From the NCBI GenBank assembly GCA_018882965.1, contig VEQY01000016.1, positions 308 to 64,307 on the forward strand: a stretch of DNA of 64,000 nucleotides, written 5' to 3'. Each line of letters starts with the position of its first letter. Within the stretch, counting starts at the first letter, position 1. Below the pieces are notes generated by a model. It was not told where the DNA came from, ran no database searches, and saw only the letters and a list, made by a program, of their open reading frames with translations. The translations under genes and the position numbers were made by a program. Below are positions 237 to 56,112 of the stretch, in pieces. The stretch is from Mycobacterium sp. Lineage in GTDB: Bacteria; Actinomycetota; Actinomycetes; Mycobacteriales; Mycobacteriaceae.

Positions 237-3038
237 GTGGTATCCATGGGCGGGGATCCCGGTGACACCCAGGGGCGGCACACGCCCGGCGCTGTCGTCG
301 GGCGTGAGCACGAACTGCAGGCGATGCAGGCCCTGCTGGATGCAAGCCGGCGCGGTCCGGCAGCGCTGATCCTCGACGGCGAGGCCGGCATCGGCAAGAC
401 CACCCTCACCTTGGCGGTCGCCGATGCGGCCGCCGCAGCCGGCTTCGGCGTGCTCACCACGTCCGGCGCGGCCGCAGAGGTGTCACTGGCGTGGGCGGCG
501 CTGGCCGACCTCATCGGCGGCATCGACGCCGACGTGCTCGCCGAACTGGCACCGCTGCACCAGCAGGCCGTGCAGGCGATCACCACCGGAGCCCAAGGCC
601 CGGGCGGGGACGAGCGCCTCGTCGCGATGGGCCTTCGCACCGCACTCGAACGGCAGAGCCAACGACGACCGCTGCTCGTCGTCGTCGACGACGCCCAGTG
701 GATCGACGAGCCCAGCAAGCTGGCGCTGGGATTCGCGGTGCGGCGGCTCTCCGGGCCGGCGGTAGTGCTGGCGGCATTCCGCAGCGGCGAGCCCGGCGGA
801 CGCGACCGGTCCTGGGTGCAGCCGCGCGACCCGAGCCGACTGAACCGCCTGACGCTGGGCCCGATGCCCGACCGCGATCTGCGCGCGGTGCTCACCACCC
901 GGCTGGGACGCCGTCCGTCCCCGGCGGCGATGGCACACATCGAGTCCCTCGCCGGCGGCAACCCGCTCTACGCGCTGGAACTGGGCCGCTCCCTTGACGA
1001 CAAACCCGACAACGGGACCGCGGAGCTGCCGGTGACGCTCAGCGAACTGGTGCGCCGGCGTATCGGGGAGCTCGACGCGGCCACCGCCGAAGCGATCCTC
1101 ACGGTGGCGACCGCGTTCGAGCCGACCGTCGAGGTGATCGCTGCGGCGACCAACCGCAGTCCCGACGATCTCGTCGTGCTACTCGAGCCGCTGGAACGCC
1201 GCGGCGTGCTGATCTTCGATGGCTCCCGCATCCGGCTCACCCATCCGCTGATCGCCTCCGGGATCACAGCCGACGCCGACCCCACACGGCAGCGCTGCGC
1301 CCACCGGCGCCTGGCCGCCGCCGTCAGCCACCCTGAACAACGCGCCCGTCACCTGGCCCTGAGCACCGCCCACGGCGATCCGGAAACGCTGGCCGCGTTG
1401 GACGCCGCCGCCGAAAACGCCGCTGCGCGTGGGGCATACAGCACCGCCGCCGAACTGGTCAGCCTGGCGATCCGGCTGGGTGCCGACGACCAGTTGCAAC
1501 GGCTGCGCGGCGGGGACTACTTCTTTCGCGCCGGGGACTTCGATGGGGCCGATGCGATGGTCGCACCGATCCTTGAGGACCTGCCGGCGGGCTTCATGCG
1601 CACGGTCGGGCTCCTGCTGCTCTCAGCCGTCCGGGGCTATCGTGACGGGGTCGCCAGCACGATCGGGATGCTGCAGCGCGCCGTCGAGGAAGCCGGCGAC
1701 AACCTGGTACTGCGCACCCAGGCGTTGCTGGTGTTGGCGCTGTCCACCGGTATCGGCGGTGACCTGGCGACCTGTGTGGAGCAGGCCGCGCGCGCCCGCG
1801 CCGACGCCGACGCCACCGGCCTGCCCGCACTGCGCAGCCAAGCGCTCACCCTGTCGGCACACGTCGGCTTCCTCTACGGGCTGGGCAGCGACACCGCCGC
1901 GCTGGACGAGGCGCTGGAACTCGGCGAACCCGACCCGACTACGCCGATCATGCTGCGACCCAAGTCGATTCACGCGCTCCAGTGTGGCTGGACCGGACGG
2001 CTCGAGCAGGGCCACGCGGAGCTTACCGAGGTGTGGCACCAGTGCGCCGAGCGCGGCAACGAGCTCGAAATGCTCTGGGCCGACGAGCAACTCACCACGA
2101 TCGAGGTCTGCCTGGGCCGATACGACGACGCTGCCCGCACCGCAGCGGGTGCCCTCGAGCGCGCCGAACACCTCGGCGGGCGGCTGCCGCTGATCACCGC
2201 CCACACCGCGATCGCTCACGCCGCGGCCTACCAGGGGCGCATCGATGACGCGCGGGCGTCGGCGGGGTTGGCGATCGCGGGGGCCACCGAGGCCGGGCTG
2301 GGATACCTGGTCGGCCCACCGACGATGAGTCTGGCCTTCGCGCTGGTCTCCGACGGGCACTACGAGGAAGCGCTGCAGGGTCTGCAGCCGTTGCTGGCTC
2401 GATTCGACCCCGAGCACGACACCGAAATCGTCGCCGGGGCGTTCCTACCCGACGCCGTGGAGGCGCTGACCGCGCTCGGTCGCACGGCCGAGGCCGAGCC
2501 CCTGGTGGCCGCGCTGGAAACCAACGGTGCCCGCCTGGACCGACCGTGGATGCTGGCGGTGGGCGCGCGCGGTCGCGCCCAAGTTCAGGCCGCCATGGGT
2601 GACCTCGACGGCGCGCTGAAGTCCACCGAATGGGCGCTGGCCCATCACGAGCGACTGCCGATGCCCTTCGAACGCGCGCGCACACTGCTGCTGGCAGGCC
2701 AGTTGCAGCGCCGTCGGCGGCGCACGCACCCCGGCCGGGCCATGCTGACCGAAGCGGTCGCCGTGTTCGAGGAACTCGGCAGCCCGCTGTGGGCGGAGCG
2801 CGCGCGCCGTGAGCTGACCCGGTTGGAGAAGCGGGCCGCCGGCACCGCGCTCACCGAGGCCGAACGTCAGGTCGCCAAGCACGCCACCGAGGGCATGACC
2901 AACAACCAGATCGCGGCTCTCTTGTACGTGTCGGCCAAGACCGTCGAGATGCACCTGTCCAGCGCCTATCGCAAACTCGGTATCCGCTCACGCACCCAGC
3001 TCATCGAGCGGTTGAGGGCGGGCGAGTTGCGGGATTGA
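237..3038 (+). CDS. LuxR-family STAND/AAA-ATPase transcriptional regulator (MalT/LAL-like); start may be ATG at 246
   Basis: Walker A GEAGIGKT, Walker B LLVVVDDAQW, helical middle region, C-terminal LuxR HTH (LTEAERQVA...SAKTVEMHLSSAYRKLGIRSR). Confidence 0.93.
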   Translation: MVSMGGDPGDTQGRHTPGAVVGREHELQAMQALLDASRRGPAALILDGEAGIGKTTLTLAVADAAAAAGFGVLTTSGAAAEVSLAWAALADLIGGIDADVLAELAPLHQQAVQAITTGAQGPGGDERLVAMGLRTALERQSQRRPLLVVVDDAQWIDEPSKLALGFAVRRLSGPAVVLAAFRSGEPGGRDRSWVQPRDPSRLNRLTLGPMPDRDLRAVLTTRLGRRPSPAAMAHIESLAGGNPLYALELGRSLDDKPDNGTAELPVTLSELVRRRIGELDAATAEAILTVATAFEPTVEVIAAATNRSPDDLVVLLEPLERRGVLIFDGSRIRLTHPLIASGITADADPTRQRCAHRRLAAAVSHPEQRARHLALSTAHGDPETLAALDAAAENAAARGAYSTAAELVSLAIRLGADDQLQRLRGGDYFFRAGDFDGADAMVAPILEDLPAGFMRTVGLLLLSAVRGYRDGVASTIGMLQRAVEEAGDNLVLRTQALLVLALSTGIGGDLATCVEQAARARADADATGLPALRSQALTLSAHVGFLYGLGSDTAALDEALELGEPDPTTPIMLRPKSIHALQCGWTGRLEQGHAELTEVWHQCAERGNELEMLWADEQLTTIEVCLGRYDDAARTAAGALERAEHLGGRLPLITAHTAIAHAAAYQGRIDDARASAGLAIAGATEAGLGYLVGPPTMSLAFALVSDGHYEEALQGLQPLLARFDPEHDTEIVAGAFLPDAVEALTALGRTAEAEPLVAALETNGARLDRPWMLAVGARGRAQVQAAMGDLDGALKSTEWALAHHERLPMPFERARTLLLAGQLQRRRRRTHPGRAMLTEAVAVFEELGSPLWAERARRELTRLEKRAAGTALTEAERQVAKHATEGMTNNQIAALLYVSAKTVEMHLSSAYRKLGIRSRTQLIERLRAGELRD

Positions 3039-3041
3039 CCA

Positions 3042-3099
3042 CCGAGATTGCGCCCAGATCACCCAAACGGGCGATTTCGCGATCTGAGCGCATTCTCGG
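3042..3099 (+). repeat. REP-like imperfect palindrome, copy 2, starting 3 bp after the luxR stop; possible terminator or stabiliser
   Basis: CCGAGATTGCGCCCAGATC...GATCTGAGCGCATTCTCGG; 3040-3103 matches 6621-6684 at 62 of 64 positions. Confidence 0.9.
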
Positions 3100-3166
3100 C
3101 GCGCGGATGGGCTTCGGGCGCCCACAATTACCGACTGACAAGTTCGGAATCACCACGAAAATCGCA

Positions 3167-3182
3167 AGGGAAAACCCTGTAA
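3167..3182. promoter_or_regulatory. Operator-like motif AGGGAAAACCCTGTAA upstream of the large secreted protein gene
   Basis: Exact reverse complement of 46-61; 106 bp upstream of ATG 3289. Confidence 0.6.
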
Positions 3183-3288
3183 TGAACGGCGCGCGGACCT
3201 GGGGGGTGTGATTTAGCCTTTTCTCGAGGGCCGATGCCGCCCTGAGCAGGGGTGAACGGCCGCTTTGCGGACGCGGGGAGATCATGCA

Positions 3289-6200
3289 ATGAAAGCGTCG
3301 GTGTATGTGGGCCGGGTCGGGGGGTTGGCCCTGGCACTGGGCATCGGGGTCGGGGTGTCGATCGCATGCGGGCCACCGGTGGGGGCGGCCCCGGGCCAGG
3401 GATCACCAGATCCCTCCGCCACAGCCGAACCCAGCCCGGCGCGCGGTGGCGCGACAACGCAGCGCACCCGACAATCCCGCGGCACACCCGTCGCATCAGA
3501 AGCCCCCGGTCCTGACAATGCCCAGCGCGCCGCAGTGTCGACCCCCCGGGAGTTGCCCTCGGCGGCGCCGGGCAACGACTCCCCACCGCGTCCCTCCGCG
3601 GCGGTGAGCCTCAAGGTGCCGGCGGTGCCGGTAGCAGCGGGCGGAGTGTCGCGGCGACCCGGTGATGCGGTGGCGGCCGTTGCCCTGGCGCCCGCGCCCC
3701 CGGCGAACCCGCCCAGCGCCACAGCGACACCAGCCGCGCTAACGCCCGCAGCGCCCGCGCCAGATGCGTCCGCCGCGCGACCTGCTCCCGCCAGTGACTT
3801 GCTCACCATGGCGTCGGCGCTACTGCTCGGCGGTGGGCCGGCGTCGCCGGTGGAGTCCCCGACAGCCTGGGCAGCGGTGGCTGCCGCCCGCTCGCGCGAG
3901 GACCAGGGACCGCTCGGAGCGGCTGCGACGCCCGCGCTGAACCCGCGGATCACGGCGACCTACACCGTCGGAGTCGAACCGCGATTGGTGGTGGCCGACC
4001 CCCGCGGCCGGTGGGTCTACACCATCAACGAAAGGGGCGAGAAAGGAACGGACCGGGAAATCTATGCGTCCATCTCGGTCTTGGACACCGTGACCAAGAC
4101 GGTCACGACGTACAGCATGATCCCGTCAGGCTGCGGATGCGACGGCCGCTTCACCGACGATGTCGCGATCACTCCCGACGGCACCCTGTACCTCTTCGGA
4201 CTGGAGGAAGAGCGCGCCCTAGTCGATGTCGGCAACTACGTCGTCGGCGCTACGGCGCGGGAATCGGGATTCCAATGGCGGGAGATCCCATCGGAAGATG
4301 CGAGTGCGCTGGGCTCCCAGTACGGCGGCTTCGCCATCAAGTCCGTCGCCGGAGCTGTGAGTTTCGACGCCAAGACCGTGATAACCGGACTGATCGCGAC
4401 CAAGGCTGTCCCAAGAACGCTGTCCTACAAGGAGGTCGATGAGGACCGGGGACTCCAGCCCTTCTACGACCCCCGTACCGAGACGCTCAAGGAGTACGAC
4501 ACCCAGGCGTTCCTCGGCTACATCGATACCGCACTCGTTGCCGGGTTACCCCTCGGTGAGGGCAGCGGCGGAACCGTTAGCGACGGTGACGAGGATGAAG
4601 GTGCAGTGCCAACACGCCCGCAGGGCAGCATCCCCAAGACGATAATCCCCGGCGCCGAAGGTCAGCGGGTGGGACCGATACTGAATTGGGCGAACACCAA
4701 GGGCTGGGAGGACATCGGACTAACCGTCAACGATGTCGAGCTGGTCGGGCCGGCATCGTCGGGGATCGCCTGGCTGGTGGGAACCAAGGATCCCCGGAAA
4801 GCGAGGGGCCGAGCCGCTGCGGTGCCCTGGGTGGCGTCGGTGATCACCTCCACGGGTGCGACCGCCTATGTCAAACTGCCCAGTGACTTCACCGGCTCCG
4901 GCGTCAGACTTAAGGAACTTTCTCTCGCGAAAACGCCGAGTGGATCGAGGATCTTCGTCGGGGGTTCGAAAATTGCCGTGATCGACGGTGCCTCGCGTGC
5001 TCTGATCACCACGATCGACCTGCTGCCCGACACGCCTTTTAACAACTCCAACGGCGCATCCGTCATCGATATGGCGGTCAGCCCTGACGGCAAATACCTA
5101 TTCGCGCTCAACAGCGATAGCGAACCCGCACGCAAGCTGTTCTTCGTCATCGACATCGCGACCAATGCAGTGCTGAAAACCTTGACTCTCGACACGCTCA
5201 ACGGCACGGGATACGCCTCTGATATGGCTGTCAGTACCGACGGCAAGCGTGTGTACATCACCACCGACAGCTCCAGTGGCGCACCCTATAGCGCGAGCAT
5301 CCTCAGCGAGATCGACCTCTATGCTCCGGCACCGACCGGCACCGCGACCGTAGGCACGCCCGAGGTCAGCACCGGCGTGGTCGCCGGCAGGGTAACGACT
5401 TCCGGTCTGGGTGGGTCGATGACCTATACCCCGACCACGCCGGCCAAGGGGACGGTCAGCATCACTAACGCCGGGGCATTCACCTTTACCCCGAGTGCGG
5501 CGGCGATGCATGCGGCCGCCCGCAACGGGGCCGCGACAGCGGAGAAGACCGACACGTTCACCGTGACCGTCCGCGACAGCCAGGGCTCGCGGGTCGACGT
5601 GCCCGTGACAGTCACCATCGTGCCCCGCAACACGCCCCCGGCCGACGTCCGCGCCAGCGTCGGTTCCCCCGATACCTCCACCGGGGTGGTCACCGGAACG
5701 GTGAGCGCCACCGACGCCGACCGCGACAGCCTGACCTTCTCGGTGCCCGCAACCACCGCCAGGGGCGGAATCACCATCAACGCTGCCACCGGCGCGTTCA
5801 CCTACACGCCCACCCTGGCCGCGCGGCAGAACGCCGGCAAGCCCGGCGCTACCGCCGCGGACAAGTCCGACAGCTTCACCGTCACGGTGTCTGATGGCTA
5901 CGGCGGCTCAAGATCGACGGCTGTCGCGGTGGCGATCAGCCCGGTCGCGCCCCCTGCGAACTCCCCGCCCGTGCCCGGTACGCCCACAACGACCACCAAT
6001 ACCTCCACCGGAGTGGTGAGCGGCAAGGTCAACGCCACCGACCCCAACGGCGACTCTGTGACCTACACCGCAACGACGATCTCTACCGCCAAAGGCAGAG
6101 TGACCGTCACCGGTGCGGGGACCTTTACCTACACGCCCACCGCCGCCGCGCGCCATGCGGCGGCGCGAAGCGGTGCCACCTCGGCCGACAAAGCCGATAC

Positions 6201-6594
6201 CTTCACCGTCACCGCCTCCGACGGGCGTGGCGCAAGTGCTGGCATCCCGGTCACGGTGACCATAAGCCCGAAGAACACCGCGCCCAGCGGAGTACGGGCC
6301 ACTGTCGGGACACCGAACACCACGACCGGGGTCGTCACCGGACGGGTCAGCGCCACCGACGCGGACAGAGACCCGCTGACCTTTTCCGCCCCGGCCACCA
6401 CGAGCAAGGGGGCGATCAGCATCACCGCTTCGAGCGGGGCGTTCACCTACACGCCCACGCTCGCCGCGCGGCAAAACGCCGGCCGGCCCGGGGCAGGTAC
6501 AGCCGATCGCTCCGATAGCTTCATCGTGACGGTCGCCGACGGCTACGGCGGCAGCGCCCGAGTCACGGTGTCGGTGACGATCCGGCCGGCCTGA
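3289..6594 (+). CDS. Large secreted/surface protein: signal-like N-terminus, Ala/Pro linker, YncE/YVTN-type beta-propeller, four C-terminal VCBS/Ig-like (cadherin-like) repeats; putative adhesin
   Basis: GGGGAG RBS before ATG 3289; N-terminus [15 protein letters not shown]; blade motifs (VAITPDG, MAVSPDGKYLF, MAVSTDGKRVY); four about 105-aa repeats with TGVV.G.V.ATD, GAFTYTP, DSFTVTV.DG. Confidence 0.85.
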   Translation: MKASVYVGRVGGLALALGIGVGVSIACGPPVGAAPGQGSPDPSATAEPSPARGGATTQRTRQSRGTPVASEAPGPDNAQRAAVSTPRELPSAAPGNDSPPRPSAAVSLKVPAVPVAAGGVSRRPGDAVAAVALAPAPPANPPSATATPAALTPAAPAPDASAARPAPASDLLTMASALLLGGGPASPVESPTAWAAVAAARSREDQGPLGAAATPALNPRITATYTVGVEPRLVVADPRGRWVYTINERGEKGTDREIYASISVLDTVTKTVTTYSMIPSGCGCDGRFTDDVAITPDGTLYLFGLEEERALVDVGNYVVGATARESGFQWREIPSEDASALGSQYGGFAIKSVAGAVSFDAKTVITGLIATKAVPRTLSYKEVDEDRGLQPFYDPRTETLKEYDTQAFLGYIDTALVAGLPLGEGSGGTVSDGDEDEGAVPTRPQGSIPKTIIPGAEGQRVGPILNWANTKGWEDIGLTVNDVELVGPASSGIAWLVGTKDPRKARGRAAAVPWVASVITSTGATAYVKLPSDFTGSGVRLKELSLAKTPSGSRIFVGGSKIAVIDGASRALITTIDLLPDTPFNNSNGASVIDMAVSPDGKYLFALNSDSEPARKLFFVIDIATNAVLKTLTLDTLNGTGYASDMAVSTDGKRVYITTDSSSGAPYSASILSEIDLYAPAPTGTATVGTPEVSTGVVAGRVTTSGLGGSMTYTPTTPAKGTVSITNAGAFTFTPSAAAMHAAARNGAATAEKTDTFTVTVRDSQGSRVDVPVTVTIVPRNTPPADVRASVGSPDTSTGVVTGTVSATDADRDSLTFSVPATTARGGITINAATGAFTYTPTLAARQNAGKPGATAADKSDSFTVTVSDGYGGSRSTAVAVAISPVAPPANSPPVPGTPTTTTNTSTGVVSGKVNATDPNGDSVTYTATTISTAKGRVTVTGAGTFTYTPTAAARHAAARSGATSADKADTFTVTASDGRGASAGIPVTVTISPKNTAPSGVRATVGTPNTTTGVVTGRVSATDADRDPLTFSAPATTSKGAISITASSGAFTYTPTLAARQNAGRPGAGTADRSDSFIVTVADGYGGSARVTVSVTIRPA

Positions 6595-54609: not shown

Positions 54610-56112
54610 ATGAACATACGGAGCGGGGCGCTGGCGGTCGCGTTGGGCGCAGGAGGGGTGCTCCTCGCTGTTCCTGTCGTGTCGTCAGCCGACCCCGGTG
54701 AGGTGACGGGCACCGGTGTCGCGGCGTCCTCCACGGAATCGACCTCGACGCCCGCGCCGAAGCACCGAGGAGCGACCCGCCGCGATTCCGCGGACCACGC
54801 CGGGCCGGTGCGGCCGGCGAGTGCGGCGGTCACGCCGCCCGCGACGGCCCCGGTCGCCGGTGTCGCGCAGAGGCGCAGGCCATCCGCGGTGACCGCCGAC
54901 CTTGCCTCCCCGACCATCGCGCCGGTCGCCGACCGGACACCCGTTGGCGGCGCCATAGATCACCTGATGCCCATTGTCACACCAGTCAGCTGGGCCGCAC
55001 TGGCGGTGAGCCGTCGCGAGCACACCGACACCCCCGCCACGGCCACCCCGGCCGCATCAGTGACCACAGCGGCGCCGGCCGCGGGGACCGGCCCGCAGCC
55101 CGCACCGCCGGGCCCAGCCGCAGCGGCGGTCAGTCCGGCCAATCCGGTCGCCACGGTCGTCGGGCAGATCCGGGCGGTCGTCAGCGAGTTCGTGAACGCC
55201 GTCACCCAGGTGATCGCCGCGGTGGTCCAAAAGGTCACAGCGGTGATCAACCGGATCATGACCGTGTTCTCGCCCCGGGGTGATTCCGTCGACGTGGCCG
55301 ACATGCAGCTCACCACCCTGCAGTACAAAGACATCGCCGGGGTCGACCCCAACAAGCTGGCCGTGGACGTCTACACCGATCCCGATTTCTCAGACCGGCC
55401 GGTGATGATCTTCATCCACGGCGGCGGGCTGAAGAACGGCGACAAACGCAACGACGGAGCCTACCTCGCGAAAGCTCCGCACTTCGTCTCCAACGACTAC
55501 GTTTACGTATCAGTGAACTACCGCCTGAGTCCCGGTGTCGTATCCCCGTCGCATATCGAAGACGTCGCCGACGCGGTGATGTTCGTCCACGACAACATCG
55601 CCGACTACGGGGGTGACCCGAACCAGATCTTCGTGATGGGTCACTCGGCCGGCGCCTATCTTGCGACGCTGCTTGCCACCAACGAGAAGTACATCGAAGG
55701 TGCCGGTGGAGATCTGTCGATGATCAAGGGCGTGGTCTCCCTCGACGTGTGGGCCTACATGTCAGTCGCTGATTGGCAGCAGGGTGTGCTCTCGAGTGAT
55801 CCCGCGGAACGTTTCGATGCGGTCCCGGCCAATCACGTCGACAGCGACAAGGGGATCCCGCCCTTCCTGATCTTCTATCGCGATGGCAGCAGCCAGGAAT
55901 CGGTCACCCGAGACCAAACGGCATTCAGCGACCTGCTCCTCGCGAACGGCGTTCCCGCGGCCTCTGTCTTGGGCGTGAATGACGATCACATCGAGCTGAA
56001 CCGGGAAGTCGGTACCGTCGGCGACGAGAAGACTGCGATCATCATGGAGTTTCTGGCCGATCCGACCCGGGTCGCCTCGATCGCGGCCGGGTACGGGTTC
56101 ACCGCGACCTAG
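54610..56112 (+). CDS. Secreted HSL-family esterase/lipase with long Ala/Pro/Thr-rich N-terminal linker
   Basis: Signal ALAVALGAGG; IFIHGGG, SVNYRL, MGHSAGA, DDHIE. Confidence 0.87.
   Translation: MNIRSGALAVALGAGGVLLAVPVVSSADPGEVTGTGVAASSTESTSTPAPKHRGATRRDSADHAGPVRPASAAVTPPATAPVAGVAQRRRPSAVTADLASPTIAPVADRTPVGGAIDHLMPIVTPVSWAALAVSRREHTDTPATATPAASVTTAAPAAGTGPQPAPPGPAAAAVSPANPVATVVGQIRAVVSEFVNAVTQVIAAVVQKVTAVINRIMTVFSPRGDSVDVADMQLTTLQYKDIAGVDPNKLAVDVYTDPDFSDRPVMIFIHGGGLKNGDKRNDGAYLAKAPHFVSNDYVYVSVNYRLSPGVVSPSHIEDVADAVMFVHDNIADYGGDPNQIFVMGHSAGAYLATLLATNEKYIEGAGGDLSMIKGVVSLDVWAYMSVADWQQGVLSSDPAERFDAVPANHVDSDKGIPPFLIFYRDGSSQESVTRDQTAFSDLLLANGVPAASVLGVNDDHIELNREVGTVGDEKTAIIMEFLADPTRVASIAAGYGFTAT

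Follow-up and report, generated by a model that had tools for sequence, protein, structure and literature searches.

Known export leaders and the locus analyzed

How Sec-exported proteins pass the mycobacterial wall and the outer mycomembrane is poorly understood. We know of no sequence-defined signal for this post-Sec surface or release step in mycobacteria. In Gram-positive cocci, the YSIRK-G/S and KxYKxGKxW motifs mark Sec signal peptides of conserved sequence on large surface proteins. The PE domain with its linker (PE_PGRS and LipY type) takes the ESX-5 route, has no Sec signal, and is removable after export. Conserved export leaders or sorting motifs on unrelated cargo are a known kind of element; the leader described here has no curated description.

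We analyzed a stretch of 64,000 nucleotides (the window) from Mycobacterium sp. (GenBank assembly GCA_018882965.1, contig VEQY01000016.1). Two of its genes, encoding an adhesin-like protein and an esterase, begin with the same kind of leader. It consists of a signal peptide of special sequence, a low-complexity spacer, and a short leader-end module with a tryptophan and an Arg-Arg pair. This three-part leader is modular, selected, and lineage-specific, and its module is strictly tied to the special signal peptide. Positions are those of the window unless contig positions are named, and arrows in sequences mark predicted cleavage sites.

As in the YSIRK-G/S and KxYKxGKxW proteins, the sequence of the signal peptide, not just its hydrophobicity, is kept across unrelated surface proteins of one lineage. 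By analogy, this would imply an extra layer of sorting information. The present leader differs in its motif, in its long disordered spacer and second internal helix, and in its diderm mycolate host. At E ≤ 10, four leaders had no match to the NCBIfam models of the YSIRK and KxYKxGKxW signals; the likeness is one of function alone. The PE domain is likewise a lineage-specific N-terminal module that brings diverse passengers to the mycobacterial surface, among them hydrolases and Gly-rich PGRS-like repeats. Unlike the PE domain, the present leader has a Sec signal peptide and no PE homology.

The module itself has other counterparts. The C-terminal tripartite signals (LPXTG/sortase, PEP-CTERM/exosortase, and GlyGly-CTERM/rhombosortase) also combine a Gly/Pro-rich signature, a hydrophobic stretch, and an Arg-Arg cluster, and they also occur on many unrelated exported cargo proteins per genome. 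The module differs from them in lying N-terminal to the passenger and in having a hydrophobic stretch of 7–10 residues, which is below the threshold of a membrane span. No NCBIfam sorting-domain model matched it, and no dedicated sorting enzyme turned up, though a cognate enzyme was not exhaustively searched for. Kex2/furin-type pro-region sites (KR↓EA) resemble the module, in which Arg-Arg followed by an acidic residue marks where a dispensable N-region meets the functional protein. The recognition element of the module, however, is a helix of ~19 residues, far longer than a convertase site, and no kexin-type enzyme is implicated.

The earlier note on this DNA had called the leader uncharacterised, and database searches agreed. 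Even with a threshold of E ≤ 10, the leaders matched nothing in Pfam-A or NCBIfam, with a single exception. This was NF043060, the MAP_0585 family of M. avium subsp. paratuberculosis, which resembles one leader in the style of its signal peptide (E = 0.009). The match reached 16 bits against a cut-off of 170 and covered the signal and the start of the spacer only, not the module. The PDB profile search was in effect empty (one match, E = 4.7). String searches of the literature on motif variants, and keyword searches on conserved mycobacterial signal peptides, gave nothing relevant.

Two unrelated secreted proteins carry the leader

The first gene (3289..6594, + strand) is a long open reading frame (ORF) for an adhesin-like secreted protein of 1101 residues. 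Pfam and NCBIfam matches gave the domain order as leader, YVTN-like beta-propeller region, and Big_9/cadherin-like/VCBS repeats. Its predicted Sec-type signal peptide (3298..3399, + strand) is a member of the Y[VI]GR[VI]G[AG]LAVALG[VI]G signal family. The hidden Markov model (HMM) of that family matched it with E = 4e-14, the signal profile of the genome search matched at contig positions 3605-3706, and its Kyte-Doolittle 19-residue peak was 1.98. The translated spacer (3400..3777, + strand) is of low complexity, rich in Pro, Ala, and Ser, and contains the basic cluster ..TQRTRQSRG..; all paralogues share this design. The module follows as a 44-residue profile window (3778..3909, + strand; E = 3e-15 with the own-genome profile). 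Within it, positions 3856-3900 encode the core helix motif SPTAWAAVAAARSRE, and the segment 3838-3900 translates to PASPVESPTAWAAVAAARSRE. This is the most degenerate copy of the module, with RSRE, T at -2, and V at +3 counted from the tryptophan, and its E-value with the external profile was 1.2e-3.

The second gene (54610..56112, + strand) encodes a secreted alpha/beta-hydrolase of 500 residues, an esterase of the BD-FAE/Abhydrolase_3 type by its Pfam and NCBIfam matches. A 99%-identical gene call (P0007) supports its start. The GHSAG nucleophile motif and H460 are invariant among its homologues. The signal peptide (54619..54702, + strand; ..RSGALAVALGAGGVLLAVPVVSSA↓DPGE) is a derived member of the same family (signal profile E = 1.2e-4; contig positions 54926-55009) with a Kyte-Doolittle peak of 2.21, and the esterase orthologue P0009 retains the canonical sequence VGRVAALAVAFGVG. 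The low-complexity spacer (54703..54900, + strand), read from the translation, contains the basic cluster ..KHRGATRRDS.. and has a predicted local distance difference test score (pLDDT) below 50 in the AlphaFold 2 (AF2) model. The module (54901..55032, + strand) is a canonical copy, with E = 2e-19 for the own-genome HMM and E = 1e-11 for the external profile. Its core TPVSWAALAVSRRE lies at 54979-55020, and the segment 54961-55020 translates to HLMPIVTPVSWAALAVSRRE. The alpha/beta-hydrolase passenger domain (55267..56109, + strand) was modeled with pLDDT above 90 and matched Pfam over residues 245-448.

The motif positions given in the earlier note proved correct: the tryptophan codons lie at 3868 and 54991, each inside a long ORF on the + strand. 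Both proteins also have the layout it described, in which an LA[LV]ALG.G signal is followed by an Ala/Pro-rich spacer, the motif, and an unrelated passenger. The note had called this shared leader bipartite. The sharing between unrelated cargoes was borne out, and the number of parts is three: signal, spacer, and module.

Between the leader and the hydrolase fold, the esterase has a long, confidently predicted helix (residues 179-219; 55144..55266, + strand), found in AF2 model ma17b7bb946c0 and in the alignment. It spans ~40 residues with pLDDT of about 90-95, and the two mycobacterial orthologues (P0008 and P0009) have kept it. It might serve as a lid, in oligomerisation, or in association with a membrane.

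Signal peptide and spacer

The consensus of the first part is R-[YF]-[VI]-G-R-[VI]-G-[AG]-L-A-V-A-L-G-[VI]-G, after which come ~10 hydrophobic residues and then AxA↓[D/E], the predicted cleavage site. By inspection and hydropathy, the leader N-terminus is a predicted Sec-type signal peptide cleaved by signal peptidase I (SPase I), and its sequence is unusually conserved. It has an R..GR n-region, Kyte-Doolittle 19-residue peaks of 1.7-2.3, and c-regions such as AAA↓D, AWA↓E, and AHA↓D. The twin-arginine consensus S/T-R-R-x-F-L-K was absent: the n-regions follow R-[YF]-[VI]-G-R-[VI]-G and do not contain RRxFL. Most leaders are free of Cys and have no lipobox ([LVI][ASTVI][GAS]-C). The exceptions are the adhesin and a few paralogues (..VVGC↓G), whose Cys satisfies permissive lipobox rules only.

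In the adhesin, this Cys stands in a lipobox-like context (..VSIAC↓GPP.., 3361-3375). A divergent adhesin paralogue just upstream of the window (contig 144-239, - strand) has ..SVVCGGP... These two proteins may be lipoproteins instead of SPase I substrates, judging from their signal sequences.

The second part, the spacer, has 100–230 residues of low complexity. It runs from an acidic/Ser-rich region through an Arg cluster to an Ala/Pro-rich region. A variable stretch of 10–45 residues separates the module behind it from the start of the passenger. The Arg cluster (..RR....R.R..) lies about 25–60 residues past the predicted cleavage site, for example at 3460-3500 and 54790-54830, and recurs in leaders with and without the module. 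It may be one more functional element of the leader.

The module recurs across the genome

The assembly has 3.35 Mb in 113 contigs, with 68.9% GC and about 95% completeness. The exact pattern proposed in the earlier note gave 2 matches in the six-frame ORF set and none in each of 10 composition-preserving shuffles. A core regular expression gave 12 matches in that set against 0–1 per shuffle; 11 of the 12 fell at residues 110-280 of large signal-bearing ORFs. Beyond the pair in the window, a separate regular-expression search found four additional clear copies. An HMM built from six copies found 5 more (E = 2e-8 to 5e-4). An external HMM, made mostly from sequences of other genomes (61 seed windows, two of them duplicating proteins of this genome), found 12 copies here, one of them cut short where its reading frame ends.

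The ORFs that hold the copies are large (447 to 2824 residues), and the motif comes 110–280 residues after the N-terminus. Every module in this genome is preceded by the special signal peptide. The signal HMM matched about 37 ORFs locally and 30 in the genome search, giving a density of about one leader gene per 110 kb. The earlier note had spoken of two unrelated proteins; they are indeed unrelated, and the scale is larger, with 12 module proteins and about 30–37 signal proteins in the genome.

This genome is small for a mycobacterium, yet it was the densest in leader-family genes, with 30 signal matches and 12 modules. One module-less PGRS-like paralogue (contig C78, 330-residue ORF, ..LQSWLAPDDDPSAA..) keeps only the upstream half of the module, L-x-W-L-..-D-P. 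Its sequence suggests decay of the module and not an independent origin.

The module is a short predicted helix under selection

The module has a size of ~45-55 residues and reads (L-x-W-L-G-G-G-x-D-P)-x-A-P-x-A-A-P-L-x-W-A-x-L-A-x-[S/A/T]-R-R-[E/D/Q]. The upstream L-x-W-L-G-G-G-x-D-P is an optional, weaker element, and PAA..TTGEP is frequent downstream. The core consensus is P-x3-P-L-x-W-A-x-L-A-x-x-R-R-[E/D/Q]. A logo was made from 71 windows of this genome and a protein library. P(-7) was conserved in 99%, P(-3) in 86%, L(-2) in 80%, A(+1) in 77%, L(+3) in 76%, and A(+4) in 96% of the windows. At the end of the core, [S/A/T] at +6 was followed by R(+8) in 97% and E/D/Q(+9) in 90%. W(0) and R(+7) were both at 100%, a value partly fixed by the regular expression that picked the windows. 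The low-complexity sequence around these residues could otherwise not be aligned.

AF2 was run on the module with 19 aligned copies. It predicted a single helix over ..AAPLAWATLAVSRREISS.. (residues 30-48) and coil for the remainder. A helix-turn-helix hairpin made of the two W segments was rejected, as only one helix was predicted. In the AF2 model of the full esterase, residues 1-173 had pLDDT below 50; the leader was disordered and the motif unpacked on the enzyme. Docking of the motif on the esterase fold was rejected on the same model.

The module scored 0.5–1.4 in the Kyte-Doolittle 19-residue analysis, compared with 1.7–2.3 for the signal peptides, and its hydrophobic run was 7–10 residues. 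A transmembrane helix or stop-transfer anchor needs ~18 or more hydrophobic residues with a mean of at least ~1.6. The run is too short and the hydropathy too weak, indicating that the module is not a membrane span. The predicted structure suggested a short linear motif of helical form within disordered sequence, neither a second membrane anchor nor a part of the passenger fold.

We compared the DNA of 11 core regions. Third codon positions varied freely (GCC/GCG/GCA, CTG/CTC/CTT, and CGC/CGG/CGT), whereas the amino acids were constant. The constraint is therefore on the peptide, and recent gene conversion or a DNA repeat was rejected since synonymous sites differ among the paralogues. The esterase orthologues P0008 and P0009 (55–62% identity, BLASTP) pointed the same way: their leaders could not be aligned except for the motif PL.P[IM]V[TS]P..WA.LAVSRR[DE]. 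The shorter esterase homologues P0012 and P0013 have neither leader nor module, and many others have only about 280–320 residues.

The leader family is restricted to Mycobacterium

The HMM search of this and related proteomes, which the earlier note had proposed, recovered further copies, and these were restricted to Mycobacterium. In two samples of the window's own GTDB genus, the module profile matched in 8 of 18 and 6 of 11 genomes. It had no match in about 165 genomes from 33 other genera of the family, except for one marginal match, and it gave one marginal match in 12 other families of the order. An exhaustive search of 1.84 billion representative proteins returned 70 clusters at E ≤ 1e-3, all from Mycobacterium. 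Across these searches, the module was confined to the genus of the window, apart from the marginal matches.

The signal profile gave 30 matches here, 2–24 in 7 of 11 genomes of the genus, and weak singletons only in other genera. The four genomes of the genus without the signal also had no module. Genomes with the module form a subset of those with the signal, indicating that the module is an optional part of a lineage-specific leader family. Library searches found the special signal peptide in 39 of 42 N-terminally complete module proteins.

Named carriers include Mycolicibacterium anyangense (WP_163806739.1, annotated as 'beta strand repeat-containing protein' and in UniRef as 'PE-PGRS family protein'), Mycobacterium sp. 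DL592, and Mycobacterium sp. NBC_00419. A contig scan used a 5-copy alignment and covered only the narrow variant L[SA]WA[VT]L[AS]V[AS]R. Its loci came from Mycobacterium or Mycobacteriaceae metagenome-assembled genomes, plus some labeled uncultured Actinomycetota; a match in Halocynthiibacter was spurious. Homology searches were less productive than the exhaustive search. The whole leader (residues 1-245) gave 4 matches and was swamped by low-complexity words, and the module alone gave 6, limited by database size.

Cargo of the leader

In this genome, the leader precedes Ig-like/VCBS adhesins with a propeller, the esterase, VCBS repeats with an NF038122-like metalloprotease, Gly-rich repeats, and very large helical-repeat proteins with weak DUF445 matches. 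A GH1 glycosidase carries a degenerate copy of the module. In 35 long library proteins, the cargo comprised Big_9/cadherin, Calx-beta, propellers, GH18, PE-PPE hydrolase, phosphoesterase, TIG, SH3b, and lectin domains. By these assignments, all cargo domains appear to be of extracytoplasmic type.

Gly-rich PGRS-like proteins were found on contigs C39, C22, and C111 (with the module) and on contigs C78, C60, C62, C80, and C59 (without it). They carry this Sec-type leader in place of a PE domain, start with ..NPIADFIRIFIGDGTA..P.AG.L.GNGYSW.., and continue into GGxGG repeats. One PGRS-like leader protein of M. anyangense is labeled 'PE-PGRS family' in UniRef despite having no PE domain.

The NF038122-like domain matched four ORFs here, two on contig C108 and one each on C15 and C5. 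In the C108 leader protein (2016-4856 of its locus) and in a 646-residue ORF of C15, this metalloprotease (metallo_LGF) lies near the C-terminus. The tail behind it reads ..SALLF[IL]G[LM][IL]FLRR[RK]R(K)S, a hydrophobic stretch with a basic cluster that resembles a sorting signal or a tail anchor.

Proposed role of the module

We propose that the helix is a short linear motif that is docked by a protein at the boundary of leader and passenger after Sec export, where it marks a site of maturation or hand-over. The proposal is tentative, with a rough probability of 0.45. The special Sec signal peptide would take the protein across the membrane. A protein partner would then dock the helix and mark the boundary. 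The helix would most likely direct proteolytic maturation; alternatively, through it the passenger would be escorted or sorted to the outer envelope. The segment A(+4)-x-[S/A/T](+6)↓R-R-[E/D] would fit both a signal-peptidase-like site with small residues at -3 and -1 and a dibasic site. Recognition by a protein is favored over membrane anchoring because W, A(+4), P(-7), and Arg-Arg are kept by identity and not by hydrophobicity; the small residues A(+1) and A(+4) share one helical face. The fixed position at the passenger end and the A-x-[S/A/T]↓R-R-[E/D] junction make maturation or hand-over the most economical reading. At the level of sequence, the module is a plausible candidate for an uncharacterised signal.

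Several results weigh against this proposal. About 25 signal-bearing paralogues, including Big_9 adhesins and Gly-rich PGRS-like proteins, have no module. As they share the signal and the cargo types, the module is not required for export as such. An Arg at +1 is unusual for SPase I, and the residue after Arg-Arg is not invariant, being E/D/Q in 90% of windows and otherwise G, S, A, H, L, or P. The helix was predicted with moderate confidence (mean pLDDT of about 79 in the best 10-residue block). All-vs-all BLAST of the ORFs within ±8 kb of the 12 genes found only dehydrogenase-like families as recurrent neighbors; inspection of leader-gene clusters in one complete relative showed no obvious machinery. 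No co-distributed enzyme was identified, the NF038122-like metalloprotease being the sole candidate tested. Among the genomes searched, this metalloprotease occurs only in leader-positive genomes of the genus, yet it is missing from two module-positive ones, and it was rejected as the processing enzyme. Because of that absence and its C-terminal place in leader proteins themselves, it is better regarded as cargo.

Other explanations were weighed against docking by a protein. One is envelope retention, in which, once the signal peptide is cleaved off, the Trp helix with its Arg-Arg end would lie interfacially in the plasma membrane or mycomembrane, or bind anionic wall polymers, and hold the passenger at the surface. 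A tryptophan and hydrophobic stretch followed by Arg-Arg does look like interfacial anchors and the tails of C-terminal sorting signals, adhesin-like surface proteins are among the cargo, and the Wimley-White interfacial energy of the 10-residue core was mildly favorable (-1 to -2 kcal/mol). This energy is small, however, and comes from a run of only 7–10 residues. Conservation by identity (A(+4) 96%, P(-7) 99%, and W 100%, the last partly fixed by the regular expression) is not expected for lipid binding, and a spacer of 100–230 residues separates the helix from the membrane-proximal signal peptide, placing it at the passenger end. We consider retention unlikely. The helix might also have no signaling role and be a structural relic, an ancestral N-terminal helix of a passenger or a spacer terminator that was spread by domain shuffling and kept for folding or solubility. 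In some relatives, RR[E/Q] runs straight into FFNxxP, where the Big_9-type passenger begins. In paralogues without the module, a hydrophobic segment occupies a comparable place ahead of FNNQTP. Both the module-less paralogues and the failure to find a partner gene would suit such a relic. Yet folds as unrelated as the esterase, propeller, GH18, helical-repeat, and Gly-rich passengers all follow this one peptide, after 10–45 variable residues; AF2 leaves it undocked on the esterase, and very strong conservation by identity within disordered sequence is what linear motifs typically show. A mere relic is in our view rather improbable.

The earlier note had also suggested tests in ESX, SecA2, and mycosin mutants, and the implied link to ESX or mycosin was not supported. 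A specialised export route at the cytoplasmic membrane, such as ESX/type VII, twin-arginine translocation (Tat), or SecA2, could be read from an upstream W-L-G that resembles WxG in about a third of the copies and from the Gly-rich PGRS-like cargo. This WxG-like part is poorly conserved, however, with W-17 at 37%. All carriers begin with Sec/SPase-I-type signals (Arg n-region, h-region, and AxA↓D/E) and no twin-arginine consensus, which argues against ESX and Tat, and Pfam gave no PE, PPE, or WXG100 match on the leaders at E ≤ 10. Type VII substrates are marked by such a domain, a YxxxD/E motif, and the lack of a Sec signal, whereas these leaders have Sec signal peptides. A specialised route is very improbable. 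Chance similarity between two Ala-rich low-complexity regions could be imagined from the Ala/Pro-rich flanks and the 69% GC of the genome. It is negligible and was rejected in view of the 12 core matches against 0–1 in shuffles, HMM E-values down to 1e-19, the fixed position, the association with the signal peptide, and the conservation in orthologues.

A bolder version of recognition after Sec export is that the signal peptide and the W..RR helix form a two-key address. A mycobacterial factor would read both and move Sec-exported proteins to or across the mycomembrane. The leader would then serve as a tether and the helix as a recognition or release site, and the passenger would be handed over or clipped at Arg-Arg. 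We regard this address as doubtful.

Significance

In an environmental mycobacterial lineage, a nearly invariant signal peptide stands on 7–30 large extracellular proteins per genome, and a second constrained helix stands on a subset of them, right where leader and passenger meet. Should the module turn out to be a mere structural relic, describing this modular leader family would still be useful, though of modest biological interest. The leader gives an annotation handle for proteins labeled 'hypothetical', 'beta strand repeat-containing' or, wrongly, 'PE-PGRS family'. With its module, it is a compact, mutable, and reporter-friendly element for studying post-Sec processing or sorting in non-pathogenic mycobacteria. 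A two-key address, if true, would be the first sequence-defined post-Sec surface-sorting signal in mycolate bacteria.

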